64,000 nucleotides of DNA from Planctomycetota bacterium (GTDB taxonomy: Bacteria > Planctomycetota > MHYJ01 > JACQXL01). Positions within the stretch are counted from its first letter, which is position 1; the number at the start of each line of letters is the position of its first letter. This document shows, one piece after another, positions 36,152 to 55,472 of the stretch. The notes beneath the pieces are model-generated. The model was not told where the DNA came from, ran no database searches, and saw only the letters and a program-made list of their open reading frames with translations. The translations under genes were made by a program, and so were the position numbers. Location: contig JACRIK010000027.1 in assembly GCA_016235865.1 (NCBI GenBank), forward strand, positions 26,213-90,212. The letters are read 5' to 3'.

Positions 36152-36410
36152 GCTTATCATACCAAGAAACGGCGCCTACGATACCAAGCAGTATGGTATA
36201 TAACTATCAGAACTGGGGTTTAGTTTACCAAGAAATAGGGCTTACCATACCAAGAAGAGGCGCTTTATTTACCAAAAAGATGGGCTTATCATACCAAGAA
36301 CAGGGGCTTTAGCTATCAAGCAGTATGGTATATAACTATCAGAACCGGGGCTTAAGTTACTAAGAAATATGGCTTATTATACCAAGAGTTAGGGCCTATA
36401 ATATCAATAA
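36152..36410. repeat. Tandem repeat array with 22-bp base period (units like ataccaagaaNNgggcNtta) organised as two roughly 132-bp higher-order copies. A G/C-run tract lies at 36411-36450
   Basis: gcttatcataccaagaa recurs at 36152 and 36284 (132 = 6 x 22). The array is followed by gggcggggggttagtctaatgggggtggggcacctcccccc. Confidence 0.8.
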
Positions 36411-36539
36411 GGGCGGGGGGTTAGTCTAATGGGGGTGGGGCACCTCCCCCCTGCCAAAGTAAGTGGTTGATTTATATGGGGATGGGGAAACGGAAATAGC
36501 CGAAAATAGATATTTTGAATGGTTTCTTAAGAGGAAAAG

Positions 36540-46579: not shown

Positions 46580-47344
46580 ATGATTACGATAGGCATAAAC
46601 GGCGCGTCAGGCAAGATGGGTCTTTCGCTGGTGCGTCTGATAACTGAATCCAAGGACCTTCGGCTGGTTATGGCTATTGACCGTTCGGATAATCCCAACA
46701 TCGGCAAGGACATCGGCCTGATGGCCGGTCTGGGCAAGGCCTTGGGCGTTCGCCTGTCTGCTGGGATGACCCAGAGAGCAAGTGTAATGATTGACTTCTC
46801 CCATCCGGCGGGCACAATGAAGATTCTCAAGGAATGCCTCAAATACAAAACCGCATTATTAATCGGCACGACCGGATTAAGTACGGCCCAGAAAAACCAG
46901 ATTCGTTTAGCCGGCAAGAAGATTGCCTGTCTGATTAGTCCGAATATGAGTATCGGGGCCAATCTGCTCTTCAAGGTCGCTCCCCAGATTGCGGCGATAT
47001 TAGGCCAGGAATACGATATAGAGATAGTAGAGACACATCACCGGTTCAAGAAAGACGCGCCCAGCGGCACGGCCATCCGACTGGCTGACGCCATTACCGC
47101 TACTACCGGTAAAAAGATACCGACCCACTCATTACGCATAGGCGATGTGGTGGGCGACCACACGGCAATTTACAGCACCTTAGGCGAGCGCATAGAATTG
47201 ACCCACCGGGTCCACACCAGAGACATCTTCAGCCGTGGCGCATTAAAGGTCGCCCGTTTCCTGGCCAAAGTCCGGCCCGGATTTTATACCATGGCTACCG
47301 CCATTGGCGAGCCTCGCCCTGCGGGGCGGGATGCGATAAAGTAG
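46580..47344 (+). CDS. dapB: 4-hydroxy-tetrahydrodipicolinate reductase, about 254 aa from the start MITIGINGASGKMG
   Basis: GxxGxxG NAD(P) motif, EIVETHHRFKKDAPSGTA and GERIELTH DapB motifs. The ORF opens at GTG 46553; ATG 46580 is preferred because a ggaaagg purine-rich tract precedes it. Confidence 0.85.
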   Translation: MITIGINGASGKMGLSLVRLITESKDLRLVMAIDRSDNPNIGKDIGLMAGLGKALGVRLSAGMTQRASVMIDFSHPAGTMKILKECLKYKTALLIGTTGLSTAQKNQIRLAGKKIACLISPNMSIGANLLFKVAPQIAAILGQEYDIEIVETHHRFKKDAPSGTAIRLADAITATTGKKIPTHSLRIGDVVGDHTAIYSTLGERIELTHRVHTRDIFSRGALKVARFLAKVRPGFYTMATAIGEPRPAGRDAIK

Positions 47345-47478
47345 AGTGGCTTCTTTCCTCCCGTTAACGCAAAACCTTGCCAAGGCGAAGCTAAATGATA
47401 GGCTTGTCATAGAGGCACATTCGCTTGGCTCAGTGTAAACTTAGCGAAGGAATAGGATTAAGCATAGGAGATTAAATT

Positions 47479-47715
47479 ATGAATAAAGAAAGAGCGCTGG
47501 CGGTTTTTGAAGATTATAAAATCCGCCGGATATATGATGAGGCGTCAGCCACCTGGTTCTTTTCATTGGTGTATATCATCGGGGCGCTGATTCAGCAGAC
47601 GGATTATAAATCGGACAGAAACTATTGGAAGGTCTTAAAGAATCGACTAAATAAAGAAGGCAGTGAGTCGGTTACAAAATGTAACCAACTGAAACTAGCC
47701 GACGCGATAAAGTAA
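47479..47715 (+). CDS. Small protein (78 aa) resembling the N-terminal Bro-N/KilA-N-like domain of DNA-damage-inducible protein D (DinD), apparently truncated
   Basis: FEDYKIRRIYDEASATWFF ... DYKSDRNYWKVLKNR is similar to E. coli DinD FEEIRHYGTEGQEFWSARELAPLLDYRDWRNFQKVLARA (from memory). Good Shine-Dalgarno sequence aggag. Confidence 0.4.
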   Translation: MNKERALAVFEDYKIRRIYDEASATWFFSLVYIIGALIQQTDYKSDRNYWKVLKNRLNKEGSESVTKCNQLKLADAIK

Positions 47716-47815
47716 AGTGTCATCGGAATTAACCTATCCCCTGCAACCTATTTTGGTCTGTTTTTGACGCTACCCTTTGATTTATCTGCACTTATCCCAA
47801 TTTCCGTTAAAAAAA

Positions 47816-47842
47816 GGTGGGGGAGGGGGTATGGTGGGGGGT
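47816..47842. repeat. G-run tract ggtgggggagggggtatggtgggggg (potential G-quadruplex-forming) directly upstream of the third 22-bp array
   Basis: Four G runs of 5-6 nt, read directly. Confidence 0.5.
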
Positions 47843-47851
47843 AGTACCCTT

Positions 47852-48137
47852 GGCGCTACGGAGGTACGTTATCGGCGCTATGGAGGCACGTCACCGGCCC
47901 TACAGAGGTGCATTCCAGGCGCTACAGAGGTGCATTCCAGGCACTACAAAGGTATATTCCAAGCATTACGAAGGTATATTCCAAGCGCTACAAAGGTATT
48001 CTCCAGGCATTACGAAGGTATGCTTCCGGCGCTACGAAGGTATGCTTCTGGCGTTACAGAGGTATGCTCCAGGCGCTACAGAGGTATGCTTCCGGCGCTA
48101 CGGAGGCACGTCACCGGCGCTATCATCGGTGTATGCT
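47852..48137. repeat. Tandem array of about 13 copies of a 22-bp unit (ggcgctacagaggtatgcttcc and variants) immediately upstream of the Type III mod gene
   Basis: Exact 22-nt period across 47852-48137. The three overlapping ORF-track entries 47777..48151, 47817..48218 and 47908..48186 are reading-frame artefacts of the repeat. Confidence 0.9.
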
Positions 48138-48223: not shown

Positions 48224-49810
48224 ATGCCATCACTAAATTTTAAGGGTAAGAATGCAGTTTGGAATCATCATTTGTCCGTTCCATACCAGATACTGGAAAA
48301 GGATAAGAAGCTGTCACTCAAAGGCAAGAATGAGGATGAGAACCTGATTATAGAGGCGGATAATCTGGTCGCGCTAAAAAGCTTGTTACCGAAATATCAG
48401 GGCCGGATAAAGTGTATTTACATAGACCCGCCATATAATACCGGCAATGAAAATTGGGTTTATAGCGATAATGTCAGCAGTCCGTTAATAAAAGAATGGC
48501 TAAAAAAAGGGCCTGTTGGTTCTGAGGATTTAACCCGTCACGACAAATGGCTTTGTATGATGACGCCTCGCCTTAAACTTCTTCGTGAATTGATGAGTGA
48601 GGATGGTGTCATATTTGTTAGTATTAACGACATTGAGAGTTCTCATGTGCGTATGCTAATGGATGATATATTTAATGGTAATTTTATTGGTATGTTAATA
48701 TGGAGGAAAAAAGAGGGTGGAGGACAGACTGACGATTACTTTGTAACGGAACATGAGTATGTTCTTGCGTATGCTAAATCGCCAGATTTTAAATGGGTTG
48801 ATGAAACAATTCCGATAGATGAGGCAAAATTCAAGAAAGAAGATAATGACGGAAGATTTACTGCGGTTAAACTTGCTAAATGGGGTTCTGGAGCACGGAA
48901 AGAAGATCGGCCAACGATGCATTTTGCAATAAAATCTCCCGACGGTAAAAATGTGTATCCAAAAGCACCAGATGGGAGTGCTGGAAGGTGGCGCGTTGGG
49001 AAATTAACAATGGATAATCTTCTGGAAAATGGATTAGTCTACTGGGAGGAAAAAAATGGCGATTGGGTGGCCTACGAGAAAATCTATTATGACGAAGAAG
49101 ACGTTAAGACAATTAAAGAACGGAGCATACTATACGAATTAGCTTCTACTGGTGATGCCACGAAGGCGCTAACTGAGTTATTTGGGAAAAAGGATATATT
49201 TGAAAATCCTAAGCCAGTTGAACTTACTAAATTCTTAATGCGATATACCACTGATAAATCTTCAATTATTCTTGATTCCTTTGCTGGTTCGGGAACAACA
49301 GCCCAGGCGGTTTTAGAGTTAAATAAAGAAGATGGTAAGGAGGGGAATAGGAAAGTCATTTTAATTCAACTGCCAGAAGAAATTAGGAAAGATAAGCCAG
49401 CATATAAGGCTGGGTATAGATATGTTCACGAGATTACAAGAGAGCGCGTTAAACGAGTGATTGAAAGAGATAAATTGGGTGTTGGCTTTTCATACATGAA
49501 TCTTGGATCACAGATTGATGCGGATTCTATCTTATCAGGCAAGTTGCCAACCTATAAAGAGTTTGCCAAGTATGTTTATTATCTGGCAACCGGAAAGACA
49601 GGCAACGAGTCAATTTACCTTATATATGAAAAGGACAAGGACAAACTAAAGAAGCTGGCAATTACGCTTGAATGGGCAGAGCAGACAAACAAGAAAGACA
49701 AGGGCAAGAAGATTATCTATGCCCCGGCCTGTTTCATAGATGAAGAATACCTGGAGAAGTTTAATATCCATTTTGTGAGTATTCCTTATAATCTCTTTGA
49801 AAAGAAATAG
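48224..49810 (+). CDS. mod: Type III restriction-modification system methyltransferase (Mod), N6-adenine, beta-class, 528 aa
   Basis: Motif IV DPPYNTGN N-terminal to motif I DSFAGSGTT. Strong Shine-Dalgarno sequence aaggag. Followed 3 nt later by the res gene. Confidence 0.85.
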   Translation: MPSLNFKGKNAVWNHHLSVPYQILEKDKKLSLKGKNEDENLIIEADNLVALKSLLPKYQGRIKCIYIDPPYNTGNENWVYSDNVSSPLIKEWLKKGPVGSEDLTRHDKWLCMMTPRLKLLRELMSEDGVIFVSINDIESSHVRMLMDDIFNGNFIGMLIWRKKEGGGQTDDYFVTEHEYVLAYAKSPDFKWVDETIPIDEAKFKKEDNDGRFTAVKLAKWGSGARKEDRPTMHFAIKSPDGKNVYPKAPDGSAGRWRVGKLTMDNLLENGLVYWEEKNGDWVAYEKIYYDEEDVKTIKERSILYELASTGDATKALTELFGKKDIFENPKPVELTKFLMRYTTDKSSIILDSFAGSGTTAQAVLELNKEDGKEGNRKVILIQLPEEIRKDKPAYKAGYRYVHEITRERVKRVIERDKLGVGFSYMNLGSQIDADSILSGKLPTYKEFAKYVYYLATGKTGNESIYLIYEKDKDKLKKLAITLEWAEQTNKKDKGKKIIYAPACFIDEEYLEKFNIHFVSIPYNLFEKK

Positions 49811-49812
49811 AT

Positions 49813-52299
49813 ATGATTCTAAAGGATTATCAGATAGAGGTCATCGATAAACTAAAAGAGTTCTATACCGAGGCGGAAAAACAAAAGAGCGAGGTAGAGA
49901 AGTCAAATGATAAGGTTTTAAGAGAATCTGTTTCTTATGTTGATACTGTTTATACTAAGCTTGACCTGCATTTTGCCGACCGGCCTAAGAACGGCTTAGG
50001 ACAATCATATACCCGTTTTTGCCTGAAGATTCCGACCGGCGGGGGCAAGACCCTATTGGCAATTGAGGCCATCCGGGAATACCAAAACCTATTCGCCAAG
50101 AAAAGAACCGGGTTAGTGGTTTGGATAGCGCACCGCGAGACCATCTACCGCCAGACCATAGAGAAACTCAGGGATAAAAATCATATCTACCGCCAGTGGC
50201 TGGACCAATGCAGCGGCAACCGGACCATTATTCTGGAAAAAGGACAGCCGTTACGGATGCAGGACACGGACAGCAATCTGGTGATTCTGATGCTGATGAT
50301 TCAGTCGGCCGGAAAGAAAACCAAGGAAAATATGAAGGTCTTTCAGGACAGCGGCAAATATATTGACTTCTTCCCGCCGGATAACCAATACGAGGAGCAT
50401 GAAAAACTATTAAGGAGGGTCCCTAATCTTGATCCTACCCCTGGTGATGTATTCGGCAAGAGAATAATAAAGACCAGTTTAGGCAACATAATCAGGATGG
50501 AGAATCCGCTTATGATTGTGGATGAATTCCATACGATGTTTTCGGATATTGCCAAAAGCACGTTGGACGGCTTAAACCCATCAATGATAATCGGACTGTC
50601 GGCTACGCCCAAAAAACGGGAGGGCATGAATATTTTTATAGAAATTACGGGCAAGGCGCTTAAGGACGAGGAGATGATTAAATTAGATATGCACCTGCAT
50701 TCGCCGACTACCAGCGGAGATTGGCATGAAATGATTAACAGCGTCAGAAAGAAAAGGGAGACGTTGGAAAAGACAGCGACTGACTTTAACCGTAATAAGG
50801 GGATATATATCAGGCCGATAGCATTGATACAGGTAGAGCGAACGGGTAAAGACCAGAGGGGAAAAGAATTTGTGCACAGCGAGGATGTGCGCGAATATCT
50901 GGTTGCGCAAGGAGTTCCGGCTCATCAAATCGCGGTAAAATCAAGCGAAATGGATGAGATTAAAGAGGAAAAACTCTTATCGCAGACAAGCGAAATCAGA
51001 TACATCATTACCAAAGAGGCGTTAAAAGAGGGCTGGGATTGTTCATTTGCCTATGTTTTAGGGGTGATACCCAATGCCAGGTCTGAATCCTCAATGACCC
51101 AGTTGGTCGGCCGGATATTACGCCAGCCGTATGCCAAGAAGACCGGGGTGGCGGAATTGGATGAAAGTTATGTCTATTTTAACCAGGGCGATACGGAAGA
51201 TGTCCTGCATAACATCCAGCGCGGATTTGTAGAGGAGGGTTTGGGCGATTTGGTCCAGAATATCAGCCGGGAATCAGGCCCGACCGGCTCGGACAAGATA
51301 AAAACAAAGATTAAGAAAGATATTCTCAATAAATATCCTGAGTCGTTATATCTGCCGGTCTGGCTGGTTAAGGAAGATAACAAATACCGGCGGTTCTCTT
51401 ATGATATTGATATCAGGCCCAGGATTAACTGGCAAAACGGGCATTACGATAAATGGCTGGAAAAAGAAATCCTGCCTTTGCTTAGCGCGAAATCATCCGC
51501 TTATGAATATATAGTTGATTTGGACAATCGGCATGAAAGGCGGGATTTGGATGAGATGGATGAGGGCGTTTTTGATATTTCATACCTAACCCGCCGGATA
51601 TCCGATGTGGTTGATAATGCCTTTATTGCCTTTGACCTGGCTCAGGAATTTATCTCGGCCGGCGATAAATACAAAGACAGGCAAAAACTGCTAATCAACA
51701 GTGGATTCATTATCAAGGAAATCGTCAAGAAGTTGTCAGATGAAAAAATCCAGCAAGAGCAATTAATATTTGATTCATTACTGAAAGGCAAGGAATTAAT
51801 GCTGGCGGTCAGCGATGACGAGCAGGTCGGGTATTCGTTGCCGAAAAATAATGAGGTCTATCCGGAATATGCCGAGACATATAAACTGAATCTTTTTGAG
51901 AAGTCGGATATAAAATCAATGAATTCGCTGGAGCGGAGAATTGCCGGTTCTATTGATAATAAGAAAAATGTAATCTGGTGGGCGCGGAATATAGCCAGCA
52001 GCAGGAAATGGTATGCCATAAGAGGTTGGAAGAGAGGCAAAATCAGGCCTGATTTTATCGTGGCCAGGAAGAATAAAAGCGATGCGTTGGAACTCGTTTA
52101 TATCATTGAGAGCAAGGGCGAACATTTAATTGGCAATCCGGATACGATTTATAAAAAGAGCGTATTTGATAAGATGAATCAGGAAACCATTGAACAGGTA
52201 ACCCTGAAACTAATCAAGTTTAAGCTGAATAAGGACTTTAGGTTTGAACTGGTTGAGCAGGGACAGGAAGATATTGAGATAAACAGATTCTTTAATTAA
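49813..52299 (+). CDS. res: Type III restriction enzyme Res subunit (SF2 helicase domain plus C-terminal PD-(D/E)xK nuclease), 828 aa
   Basis: Motif I KIPTGGGKT, motif II MIVDEFH, helicase C-domain, and C-terminal RPDF ... ELVYIIESKGEH endonuclease motif. Confidence 0.85.
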   Translation: MILKDYQIEVIDKLKEFYTEAEKQKSEVEKSNDKVLRESVSYVDTVYTKLDLHFADRPKNGLGQSYTRFCLKIPTGGGKTLLAIEAIREYQNLFAKKRTGLVVWIAHRETIYRQTIEKLRDKNHIYRQWLDQCSGNRTIILEKGQPLRMQDTDSNLVILMLMIQSAGKKTKENMKVFQDSGKYIDFFPPDNQYEEHEKLLRRVPNLDPTPGDVFGKRIIKTSLGNIIRMENPLMIVDEFHTMFSDIAKSTLDGLNPSMIIGLSATPKKREGMNIFIEITGKALKDEEMIKLDMHLHSPTTSGDWHEMINSVRKKRETLEKTATDFNRNKGIYIRPIALIQVERTGKDQRGKEFVHSEDVREYLVAQGVPAHQIAVKSSEMDEIKEEKLLSQTSEIRYIITKEALKEGWDCSFAYVLGVIPNARSESSMTQLVGRILRQPYAKKTGVAELDESYVYFNQGDTEDVLHNIQRGFVEEGLGDLVQNISRESGPTGSDKIKTKIKKDILNKYPESLYLPVWLVKEDNKYRRFSYDIDIRPRINWQNGHYDKWLEKEILPLLSAKSSAYEYIVDLDNRHERRDLDEMDEGVFDISYLTRRISDVVDNAFIAFDLAQEFISAGDKYKDRQKLLINSGFIIKEIVKKLSDEKIQQEQLIFDSLLKGKELMLAVSDDEQVGYSLPKNNEVYPEYAETYKLNLFEKSDIKSMNSLERRIAGSIDNKKNVIWWARNIASSRKWYAIRGWKRGKIRPDFIVARKNKSDALELVYIIESKGEHLIGNPDTIYKKSVFDKMNQETIEQVTLKLIKFKLNKDFRFELVEQGQEDIEINRFFN

Positions 52300-52335
52300 T
52301 AGGGGGAATACCCCTCCTTTCTCTAATGTAAAACT

Positions 52336-54183
52336 ATGTATTTCACAAAGCCCGTTTTAGCGGTAATCAAAAGAGTTATAAAAGACCTGAAAACCCGGAC
52401 AGAACTTGATAACTTATTTGAATCGTATGGCTTTGATCCTAAAAAAGATTGTGATGTTGGCAATAAATTAAATCTGGCTGGTTCATATTTAGACCATCAA
52501 GATTGGAGTGATGGAACAACGGCACATAATTTATTGGAGCTTTTGACCGAAGTTCTTCTGGGCGAGAAAGAGTCAGATACCTATCGCTGGCCCCAGGTGG
52601 AATTAATGCTTAACGCGCTAATTAAAGACAGCTATTACTGGATTAATAAGAATAAGAAATTTATCAGACAAGGTGAGCCATTTCCGCAACCCGCATTAAA
52701 TAAACCTGTTGAGCAAAAGCCTTCTGCGGAGAAGACGCCAGCTATTTTACCAGAAAATACCGGGGAGATAGCAGGAAAATACGTTAAAGAGATTCTTGAT
52801 AGGGAAAGAAATAATTTATTGTTTATAAGCAAATTCCTGGTTGATATAAAGCCCTTCTGGAATGACTGGCAATCATTTAAAGTAAAACTTCTTACAGTAC
52901 TTAACAATGAGAAAAAACGGATTATTATTAACGGGCAGGTTATCTTAGAGGTAAGTCCGATTGACTCTAAGGAAAAGCCCATTCTCCTTGAAATAGATAA
53001 TTTTTTCCAGGGCATTACTTTCCGCTATCCTTTTGCTGAATTAGAAGGATTCCTTAAAAACCTTATGACCGGCAAGGTGGTTGCTCAGGGAGAAGAATAT
53101 CATTTTGTGAACACCTCTCTTGGGCCATACGGTCCGGTTTGGGTGAACTACGCATATGATTACCCCGCACCAGTGAGCATGATAGAATCATTGAGCGGTA
53201 AAACAGCGTTTGCCATAGATTACAACGGAGATAAACTCTCAAACATTCTTGATAATACCAAAATTAAATGGCAGGACTTTTACCGGACTTGTCGGGGAAA
53301 AGGTTATAATGACCCATCTTACTTATTTAGATTATTCTTCGGATTAAGGGATGCTTATGTTACCAACGATTACCAGACCCAAATATGGATATATGCACCA
53401 ATTGATGTTTATATCAAGGAGTTTAAACCGCTTAAAAATAAATTGTCGGCCGTTATCTGGGCTGGCCCGTTAATAAAGCCGGATAATGTTGCATTGCGAT
53501 TTGTTCCCAGTAGGGAATCCCTTCCAGAACAAAGACCGGAATTTAAGCTGTCTGATTTTTCGCCACAAGGCAATTGTTTGTACCAGAAAGATATCCCAGC
53601 TGATTTTGATCAAACAGCTTTTATTGATTTAACCTATAAGGAAAAATTATTTTCAAAGGAACTTGAAATGCCGACATCTTCCGAAGATAAGCCCATTACT
53701 TTATCTATGGCAAAGAAATCAAAGATAGGCGCTAAAAATACTACAATTATTCATATGCCTAAAGGAACTAAGCCCAATGATATTACTTTTAGATTTAAAG
53801 ACCGCCGAACGATGGATGTTTTACTAAAAGATAATACCTTTAAGAGTAATGTATCATTTGATGAACTTGGATTTCAAAAGCAAAGCACCGGCAAAAAGAA
53901 GAAATCAGAACCAAGTATGCTATGGGAATTATTGGTAACGATGAGTGTAAATTATTCTAACCCGGGTTGGTCTTTTAAGGACAAGTCCACTAAAGGAAGG
54001 CAGCAGATAAGTTTACTTAGGGACAAACTTAAAACATTGCTAAATATAGAAGACGACCCCATTCCACTTAATTCTGAATTAAGAGGTTATCGCCCGGAAA
54101 TTCGTCTTGAGCCGCCACCAGATGAGCGACATCATTCCTATATAAATCCTGACGAAAAAGAGTCTGATTTGGAAGACGAGTAA
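52336..54183 (+). CDS. Hypothetical protein, 615 aa, no recognisable domain. Co-oriented immediately downstream of res within the AT-rich island
   Basis: Long ORF with AT-rich codon usage like mod and res. No Walker, nuclease or transmembrane motifs recognised by eye. Acidic, Lys-rich C-terminus. Confidence 0.6.
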   Translation: MYFTKPVLAVIKRVIKDLKTRTELDNLFESYGFDPKKDCDVGNKLNLAGSYLDHQDWSDGTTAHNLLELLTEVLLGEKESDTYRWPQVELMLNALIKDSYYWINKNKKFIRQGEPFPQPALNKPVEQKPSAEKTPAILPENTGEIAGKYVKEILDRERNNLLFISKFLVDIKPFWNDWQSFKVKLLTVLNNEKKRIIINGQVILEVSPIDSKEKPILLEIDNFFQGITFRYPFAELEGFLKNLMTGKVVAQGEEYHFVNTSLGPYGPVWVNYAYDYPAPVSMIESLSGKTAFAIDYNGDKLSNILDNTKIKWQDFYRTCRGKGYNDPSYLFRLFFGLRDAYVTNDYQTQIWIYAPIDVYIKEFKPLKNKLSAVIWAGPLIKPDNVALRFVPSRESLPEQRPEFKLSDFSPQGNCLYQKDIPADFDQTAFIDLTYKEKLFSKELEMPTSSEDKPITLSMAKKSKIGAKNTTIIHMPKGTKPNDITFRFKDRRTMDVLLKDNTFKSNVSFDELGFQKQSTGKKKKSEPSMLWELLVTMSVNYSNPGWSFKDKSTKGRQQISLLRDKLKTLLNIEDDPIPLNSELRGYRPEIRLEPPPDERHHSYINPDEKESDLEDE

Positions 54184-54487
54184 GACTGGTTGTGAAATCA
54201 ACCCTCTGGATTTCACATAATTCACAACAATTCCAATAATTCTTGAAAAATCTCGCTATCTAACATCTTTAAACTATTGAAGTTGTAGCAAGTAGTTTAA
54301 CCGCTAAAAGATTACCCCTTGTTTTTTGCCTATTTCACGGCCTAATTATAGAGGCACACGTTCGGGACGTCACCGGAAGCGGATGCGTGATGTCATCCAA
54401 TCCCGTCCGGACTTGTCTTCTATGAGTATCTGCTTGATGCCTGTTTGGCAGTTAGTCATATAAATAACAAAATAGGTGGGAACGACT

Positions 54488-54677: not shown

Positions 54678-55472
54678 ATGGGTACTATCAGTGAAGTGAA
54701 ACTGGCGGTTCTGCTGGGTATAGCAGAGGCCGGAGAGGTCCAGGTGGAGCGCTGGAAACGGGGCACCAAGAATAACGCTGACCTGACCTACCAGCAAATG
54801 CAACAGGCAATCGGCAACGAGTCCGATTATAAGTCCAAACTGGCTCTGCCGGCGGCCACGGCCTACGCGCCGGCGATGAATCCGGCTTTCGTGTCTCGCT
54901 CAGGTCTGGACCGGAACCGGATTGTCCGCAAGCAGGCGGATAACATCAACCAGGGCTACAATAATTACGCCGCTTCTCTGGCCCAGGCGTTTGAGACCGT
55001 GGATGGCGAACCGGCCAAGCGCTATAAGGAGGCGATTGACGCCTCAGCCGAGAATTACAGCCAGAAGGCGGCCCGGAACGTTCTGCCCTTTACCGGGTCG
55101 CGCGAACTGGGACTGGGCATCGCGCCCATCGCTTCAAGGTGGCTGACCGGCGATATTACGACTGAACGGCTGCTCAGGGGCGATGACCAAATCGGCCTGG
55201 GCGGGCCAATCAACGTGGCCCGGGTGACGCCGGATATGCGGACGGCCCTGAAGGCGGCCATCACCAACCGGATAGTCCAGTCAGGCAAGGTGCTGATTAG
55301 CGCGGATTGGGACCCGGCCGTAATGGTCCAGGAGAACGACCATATCAATAACCTGATTGCCTCTTTGCAGGACGCGGCTTATGTGGCTTTTGCCACGGCC
55401 GGGGTCTCGCATTGCGATTGGATTGTGATAGACGGCCGGAAATACCTGGAGATAAAGGTGGCAACAGTGTAG
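54678..55472 (+). CDS. Hypothetical protein, 264 aa, GC-rich, possibly phage-structural-like
   Basis: ORF whose GC content is visibly higher than the adjacent RM island. No motif recognised. Confidence 0.5.
   Translation: MGTISEVKLAVLLGIAEAGEVQVERWKRGTKNNADLTYQQMQQAIGNESDYKSKLALPAATAYAPAMNPAFVSRSGLDRNRIVRKQADNINQGYNNYAASLAQAFETVDGEPAKRYKEAIDASAENYSQKAARNVLPFTGSRELGLGIAPIASRWLTGDITTERLLRGDDQIGLGGPINVARVTPDMRTALKAAITNRIVQSGKVLISADWDPAVMVQENDHINNLIASLQDAAYVAFATAGVSHCDWIVIDGRKYLEIKVATV

Follow-up and report, generated by a model that had tools for sequence, protein, structure and literature searches.

The window analysed here, a 64,000-nucleotide stretch of contig JACRIK010000027.1 from a Planctomycetota bacterium, contains a low-GC islet in which a Type III restriction-modification pair (mod and res) is followed on the same strand by a third open reading frame, ORF3. 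Judged by its relatives, ORF3 is a mosaic: a sensor module associated with toxins comes first, then a core that is very rare, and last a DNA-binding-like module of the type found in mobile elements. The interpretation that we rank highest, tentatively and at somewhat less than an even chance, is that ORF3 is an autonomous modular conflict-system protein of the abortive-infection kind, made as a single polypeptide and working on or at DNA. It would lie in the same horizontally acquired islet as mod and res and be independent of them. An earlier, sequence-only reading had proposed ORF3 as a defence component that travels with the restriction system. As a candidate defence component it is plausible, though unproven; as a partner of the Type III system it is unlikely. 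The trio and the parts of ORF3 are the following.

48224-49810, + strand: mod, Type III methyltransferase of the beta class, 528 aa, with DPPY at residue 68 and FAGSG at 353
49813-52299, + strand: res, Type III Res, 828 aa, with SF2 helicase motifs and a C-terminal PD...ExK (746-768)
52336-54183, + strand: ORF3, 615 aa
52336-52752, + strand: N module of ORF3 (residues 1-139), a helical domain that AbiJ-type HEPN, TIR and kinase proteins also have at the N-terminus
52753-53730, + strand: core of ORF3 (residues 140-465), a family of four (ORF3, P0002, P0003, P0023)
53731-54135, + strand: C module of ORF3 (residues 466-600), basic, pI 9.7, from a family that lacks annotation and forms about 75 clusters at 50% identity
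54136-54183, + strand: acidic tail of ORF3, ending in NPDEKESDLEDE, with the stop codon; similar tails occur on many C-module relatives

As a whole protein, ORF3 is nearly alone. A word-indexed search of 5.8 billion clusters returned only ORF3 itself, listed by NCBI under locus tag HZA49_08560 in a Planctomycetes metagenome-assembled genome (MAG), and the proteins P0002 (462 aa) and P0003 (705 aa). The full sequence gave no match in Pfam, PADLOC and NCBIfam at E<=1 or in PHROGs and PDB sequences at E<=10, and its three pieces gave none in Pfam, NCBIfam, PADLOC and PHROGs. Searches of PDB sequences with a profile of each module produced nothing meaningful. No match was obtained by tblastn against phage and plasmid collections or by megablast against E. 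coli genomes, and alignment against genome, viral and metagenome contigs found no related locus. The description of ORF3 as uncharacterised was therefore borne out, nothing housekeeping having matched in Pfam, NCBIfam, PADLOC, PHROGs or PDB. Its other stated properties were also recovered from the sequence: no transmembrane segment is present (the highest 19-residue Kyte-Doolittle average is 0.92), residues 590-615 form an acidic tail of pI 4.4, and there is no Walker A motif. Nor was a match to Abi_C (Pfam), AbiJ (PADLOC) or HEPN found. The GKT at residue 288 was considered as a P-loop and rejected, since the Gx4 context is missing and P0023 does not conserve the motif.

The internal organisation emerged when 1.84 billion representatives were searched exhaustively with phmmer; the 100 hits fall into three non-overlapping groups that define the three modules. 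About 18 representatives match the N module (residues 1 to ~75-130), P0002 and P0023 (E 1.4e-6) match the core (residues 140-465), and about 75 match the C module (residues ~465-600). A protein composed in this way could be a decaying or chimeric leftover, a set of fused fragments without present function. The mosaic with different relatives for each module, the extreme rarity of the family and the lack of a clear ribosome-binding site before the ATG are what such a leftover would show. It is nevertheless a very improbable explanation, contradicted by an intact frame of 615 codons and by a dN/dS (nonsynonymous to synonymous substitution ratio) of 0.17-0.24 for the core against two homologues. 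Moreover, all three modules can be aligned with their respective relatives over the full length; the N module is 49% identical over about 130 residues to P0005, a TIR protein (phmmer E 3e-31), and the C module is 61% identical to its closest relative, P0004. The core is under purifying selection, and this marks ORF3, extremely rare and uncharacterised as it is, as a real gene.

The N module connects ORF3 with abortive-infection-type proteins. Its homology spans residues 1 to ~135 of ORF3, and its relatives are proteins of 100-540 aa that carry the module at or near the N-terminus (phmmer E 1e-12 to 1e-4 for those other than P0005). Domains were scanned in 19 proteins, namely the 18 N-module hits and P0023. 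Abi_C, the AbiJ-type HEPN domain, was found in 10 of them, TIR in two and a protein kinase domain in one; one gave a weak match to nucleoside deoxyribosyltransferase. PADLOC assigned N-module relatives to AbiJ, through the HEPN half only, or to ThsB-like TIR proteins. This set of partners matches a published pattern: in proteins with AbiJ-NTD1-5, the toxin domain to which the N-terminal domain is fused can vary (Anantharaman et al. 2013, PMC3710099). AbiJ-NTDs occur before AbiJ HEPN, TIR, kinase and deoxyribosyltransferase domains, and they have been proposed to be sensors of viral components and antitoxins that restrain the toxin (PMC3710099). The arrangement of an N-terminal domain before HEPN, TIR or kinase is thus seen for the N module, while neither the Pfam AbiJ_NTD3-5 models nor the N-terminal part of the PADLOC AbiJ model matched it. 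We describe the module as AbiJ-NTD-like in architecture, a term that refers to the order of domains in its relatives.

ORF3 has the layout of the AbiJ-type and TIR proteins, in which a homologous domain of sensor type at the N-terminus precedes a C-terminal part that varies, and those relatives are single genes of patchy distribution. Unlike them, it lacks HEPN, TIR or any other known toxin domain and has a 325-residue core and a DNA-binding-like domain in the effector position instead. The features that define the HEPN domain of AbiJ (a C-terminal Abi_C with Rx4-6H) are carried by N-module relatives and are absent from ORF3. The N module was also considered as an adaptor that docks onto a restriction enzyme. 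This was rejected because the three relatives on long contigs are all solitary (3/3): their neighbours are housekeeping genes, and no restriction system is close by. An alignment search for further N-module loci recovered one locus of 1.4 kb only.

The core is the rarest part of the protein. P0002 and P0003 have only residues about 140-465 in common with ORF3, at 77-82% identity, and P0023 aligns to the whole core at 27% identity. A profile of these four sequences found no further member. The core occurs without an N module in P0002 and with a different N module in P0003; it is joined to two different C modules, and in P0023 to yet another C-terminal domain. The GC content of the family is about 0.37-0.39 in all three settings. 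That the core combines with different N and C modules, and that the family keeps its own GC, are observations in favour of an autonomous modular protein. A HEPN domain at the C-terminus of P0023, suggested by eye from the motif REFRNFVH, was unsupported (probability 0.5% in hhalign against an AbiJ HEPN profile; no Pfam match), and PADLOC assigned no family to P0004, P0006 or P0023 at E<=1. On the contig of P0023, a 57-aa frame (L006 722-892, - strand) matches the last third of the C-module profile with E 5e-9, and is probably a decayed C-module gene.

The neighbourhoods of the core family raise the question of coupling to restriction. In locus L002, a gap of 18 nt separates the gene of P0002 from the Type I hsdR before it (REase_I, 6.5e-131), and this hsdR is itself preceded by a RhuM fragment. 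In the window, ORF3 follows res after 36 nt (52300-52335), the position and orientation that the sequence-only reading had given. Two of the four core-family genes are therefore directly downstream, on the same strand, of the translocase/nuclease subunit of a restriction system, and the two systems are of different types. The gene of P0003 follows one for an ImmA/IrrE-like peptidase; that of P0023 has an acetyltransferase gene on one side and small unknown genes on the other, with purF and uvrA in the vicinity.

PrrC is a precedent for a guard that is coupled to a restriction enzyme. ORF3 could likewise be a second line of defence of the PrrC/RloC type: docked on Res or HsdR, it would stay silent until an anti-restriction protein of a phage knocks out the enzyme and so sets ORF3 free to act. 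It resembles PrrC and RloC in that a defence-type gene stands directly beside an ATP-dependent restriction subunit, at two restriction types, and HEPN Abi genes embedded in restriction operons have been described (PMC3710099). PrrC and RloC are anticodon nucleases associated with Type I restriction loci. Unlike them, ORF3 has neither an ABC-ATPase with its P-loop nor a HEPN nuclease, and it is not conserved with the restriction family. No restriction genes stand beside P0023 and P0003 within the sequence available, and the relatives of the N module are solitary, as described above. The composition of the core family also differs from that of the neighbouring restriction subunit genes (the L002 gene has a GC of 0.37 against 0.48 for its hsdR, and res in the window has 0.44). 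Overall, a guard of this kind is improbable, and it is the less likely of the two functional alternatives that we weighed.

The restriction pair itself is unremarkable. The identification of mod and res as canonical was upheld by database matches and motif positions: Mod matches Pfam N6_N4_Mtase (1e-33) and, over its full length, PADLOC MTase_III (9e-117), with motif IV (DPPY) preceding motif I (FAGSG), which is the beta-class order. Res matches Pfam ResIII (4e-17) and PADLOC REase_III (9e-141), and contains GGGKT at 76, DEFH at 237, SATP at 263 and a C-terminal PD at 746 with ESK at 766. The two genes are separated by 2 nt, and in sequence features and gene order they agree with Type III systems of the EcoP15I-like Mod2Res form. 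Canonical systems of this type have two genes, and here ORF3 is an extra one that is absent from the nearest relatives of the pair.

Those nearest relatives, among species-representative genomes, are in bacteria of the candidate phyla radiation (CPR), with Res 67-73% identical. In two MAGs, of Paceibacterota and Nomurabacteria (L003 4298-9943 and L005 4358-9958), Res is 67-69% identical, the cassette has about 30% GC, and a gene for a large serine recombinase of 489 aa occupies the position of ORF3, separated from res by 4 nt. In the third (L004), Res is 73% identical and the res frame appears broken. No ORF3-like gene was found at any of these three loci, where tblastn of ORF3 gave chance matches only. 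The degree of Res identity with the CPR relatives and the recombinase 4 nt after res suggest that mod-res is a mobile restriction cassette that has been swapped between CPR bacteria and this Planctomycete. Since a serine recombinase holds that position in the closest relatives, ORF3 is not a conserved restriction partner. The proposal that it travels with the restriction system thus failed the co-occurrence comparison, and the difference in GC at L002, the solitary N-module relatives and the placement of C-module relatives in integrative elements speak against it as well.

The C module leads in a different direction. Its relatives share the consensus PxGTxWxDITIxFxD...V.I...EMGF.D.R...PN..W.LL..LA...G...W...K.KKQK..L...LK..FGI..DPF..Y.....YR.KF.L.P., and all 23 members found by the indexed search are unnamed or 'hypothetical' (23/23). 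None of 45 members carries a Pfam domain, the module itself had no Pfam match at E<=10, and the PDB profile search gave nothing relevant. The predicted model consists of a beta-sheet, two helices and a hairpin, with a weak fold match to winged helices of the OmpR/PhoB/CadC kind. The OmpR/PhoB fold itself comprises a sheet at the N-terminus, a winged helix-turn-helix of three helices and a hairpin at the C-terminus. Foldseek of this model against PDB and BFVD (viral structures) returned no significant match. When the module was compared by hhalign with six E. coli OmpR-family domains, the probability was 6.5% (P 0.0057) and the expected helices were aligned. At the level of fold, the model thus lends weak support to an OmpR/CadC-like winged helix. 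The module is not a member of Trans_reg_C: the Pfam, PDB profile and hhalign comparisons showed no relationship to OmpR, PhoB and CadC at sequence level. It has no receiver domain, and it is followed by an acidic tail.

C-module proteins are encoded by the first gene of compact integrative elements, which look like phage satellites. Two types were found, and in both the C-module gene always comes first and has no annotation in any library.

Type 1, L008-L010 (L008 8001-13568, L010 8001-13501): C-module gene, ParB-N6/N4 methyltransferase, small and large terminase-like genes, large serine recombinase
Type 2, L011-L013, from Brocadia (L011 1724-9668): C-module gene, primase-helicase, Terminase_4, HTH_17 (an excisionase-like helix-turn-helix protein), Dam methyltransferase, tyrosine integrase

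The gene of P0004 follows a MazE-PIN pair and two unknown genes. These two, at L014 2082-5009, encode proteins of 215 and 753 aa without a Pfam or PADLOC match; the pair that precedes them was seen in the overlapping contig L015. In the 753-aa protein, the N-terminal ELITNSDDSY was read by eye as a candidate GHKL-ATPase N-box. The genes upstream of P0004 are possibly an undescribed defence operon. The gene of P0006, a close C-module relative, sits in a run of small unknown genes, and in the 1.5 kb upstream of it (L032 1090-2710) are seven arrays of 11-12-bp direct repeats with 3-6 copies each, several of them with CATAC or CATAT cores. These arrays are candidate operators for the winged-helix-like module.

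An array of repeats is also present in the islet, and similar ones occur elsewhere in the window.

47852-48122, no strand assigned: 22-bp tandem array, 12.3 copies with 79% matches, directly upstream of mod and preceded by G-runs at 47805-47850

This array gave 11 matches against 0.18 expected. The other two are at 400-667 (12.2 copies) and 36160-36400, and the three adjoin uvrB, a Ser/Thr kinase gene and mod. Similar arrays were found at the loci of P0023 (L006 12093-12341, at least 11 copies) and P0004 (L014 152-247, 4.4 copies). All are intergenic and have strictly the same period, with 4-12 copies, and a unit sequence that differs from one to the next; each has 40-60 nt of G and C runs on one flank (e.g. 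330-385 and 36405-36450). A role as structured RNA was dropped because only one of four arrays tested (400-667, with a palindromic unit) had a fold potential above shuffled controls and none matched Rfam. The arrays could be iteron-like sites for protein binding, and a full-text literature search on 22-bp intergenic tandem repeats in Planctomycetes found no description of them. It was also considered that the array upstream of mod is a private binding site of ORF3; this specific link was unsupported, like arrays being present beside unrelated genes, though ORF3 may still bind there. CATAC also occurs, on one strand, in the 22-bp units at the ORF3, P0023 and P0004 loci, an overlap with the P0006 arrays that could be due to chance.

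These findings give rise to the second-ranked interpretation, in which ORF3 would have come from a mobile element, the one that brought in the restriction cassette, and would be its DNA-binding regulator, either as a transcription factor or as an iteron/operator-binding protein. Control of mod-res expression may then run through the 22-bp array of 12 copies just upstream of mod, with the core and N module as input domains. The first position of C-module genes in compact integrative elements fits this, as do the seven direct-repeat arrays upstream of P0006 and the serine recombinase beside the relatives of the cassette. OmpR-type domains bind direct repeats, which adds to the case. The islet in the window, however, contains no recombinase or other mobile-element gene, and the arrays at 400-667 and 36160-36400, beside uvrB and the kinase gene, show that the one before mod is not islet-specific. 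The closest mod-res relatives have no ORF3-like gene for such a regulator to correspond to, and 615 aa is large for a controller protein. Furthermore, all Pfam and PADLOC domains on N-module relatives are of toxin type (HEPN, TIR, kinase) and never of regulator type. We therefore regard a regulator as unlikely, though a closer competitor than the restriction-coupled guard.

The abortive-infection-type protein is ranked first because of its architectural analogy with AbiJ-NTD proteins and because of the defence-type neighbourhoods. In the proposed mechanism, the AbiJ-NTD-like N module is the probable sensor and autoinhibitor, and the core is the probable effector or signal-transducing part. The OmpR/CadC-like C domain, followed by the acidic tail, would hold ORF3 on DNA, most likely at direct-repeat sites. 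On sensing a phage component, the N module would release the core and the winged helix onto DNA. We infer both the resulting phage resistance and the chemistry of the core.

Several points weigh against this proposal. PADLOC-DB 2.0 has no known or candidate defence family that matches ORF3 at E<=1. The core has no recognisable enzymatic or toxin motif and no usable model, a full-length AlphaFold prediction from three sequences having reached a pLDDT of only 34.8. C-module relatives occupy the positions of mobile-element regulators and not those of defence systems, P0023 lies among housekeeping genes, and the context statistics of the core are thin, resting on four family members. The notion of a defence component nevertheless survives in part: the N module is common only to abortive-infection-type proteins and two of four core genes follow restriction subunits, whereas the Type III partnership that went with it is unlikely. 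The order of the four readings is thus the sensor-effector of abortive-infection type, the regulator, the restriction-coupled guard and, far behind, the non-functional mosaic.

Unknown genes are common beside restriction systems, and that an AbiJ-NTD can be combined with one effector or another has been in print since 2013. The novelty lies in a core domain of which four members are known, in a winged-helix-like family that lacks annotation and is typical of satellite-like elements, and in the fusion of the two in one protein. A more far-reaching claim would hold the core to be a new effector domain that, with swappable sensor N modules and DNA-binding C modules, constitutes an undescribed single-gene anti-phage system acting on DNA, and the C module to be a new and fairly widespread family of repeat-binding winged helices of satellite-like mobile elements. 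In this full form we consider the claim doubtful, clearly more so than the abortive-infection assignment itself. If ORF3 does protect against phage, a new effector domain would join the partners of AbiJ-type sensor modules, and an OmpR-like domain would be shown to be capable of anchoring such proteins to DNA. Irrespective of the role of ORF3, two domain families outside current libraries have been defined. One is the AbiJ-NTD-like module with its HEPN, TIR and kinase partners; the other is the C-terminal module, with its weak winged-helix-like fold match and about 75 clusters, typically encoded by the first gene of satellite-like integrative elements. A caution also follows: a gene that neighbours a restriction enzyme is not to be presumed its partner, as a recombinase stands there in the nearest relatives.

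The islet was delimited by windowed GC, as had been suggested, and extends over about 47.35-54.6 kb, with dapB on one side and GC-rich host genes on the other. Windowed GC is 0.35-0.46 at about 48.0-54.5 kb against 0.49-0.60 on both sides, and the flanking genes have 0.49-0.59. Composition of the individual genes, with GC at third codon positions as GC3, is as follows.

mod: GC 0.390, GC3 0.37
res: GC 0.436, GC3 0.53
ORF3: GC 0.379, GC3 0.36
dapB: GC 0.534, GC3 0.63
gene at 54678-55472: GC 0.590, GC3 0.73

The low GC attributed to the trio is therefore real in that all three genes are below their flanks, and it is not a shared composition: although the three genes are contiguous, the GC3 of res is near that of host genes and the values of mod and ORF3 are far lower. 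The islet is non-uniform, and its parts may differ in history or in their degree of drift towards the host composition.

Upstream of the islet are lpxK, a thiamine-phosphate synthase gene and dapB; downstream are two GC-rich genes without a family match and then an ABC-type gene. No tRNA or recombinase was found beside the islet. Three further features lie at its edges.

47330-47353: 3' end of dapB, GATGCGATAAAGTAGAGTGGCTTC
47479-47715, + strand: 78-aa open reading frame of GC 0.41, leftmost in the islet
54192-54219, + strand: inverted repeat GTGAAATC-N-GATTTCAC, directly 3' of ORF3, read from the sequence

The 24 nt at the end of dapB recur with 83% identity at 47701-47724, 371 nt downstream, where the copy forms the 3' end of the 78-aa frame. 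The repeated end looks like a target duplication or scar left by an insertion at the end of dapB. At the other edge, the inverted repeat was not called by a terminator scan; read from the sequence alone, it may be where transcription of the mod-res-ORF3 run ends.

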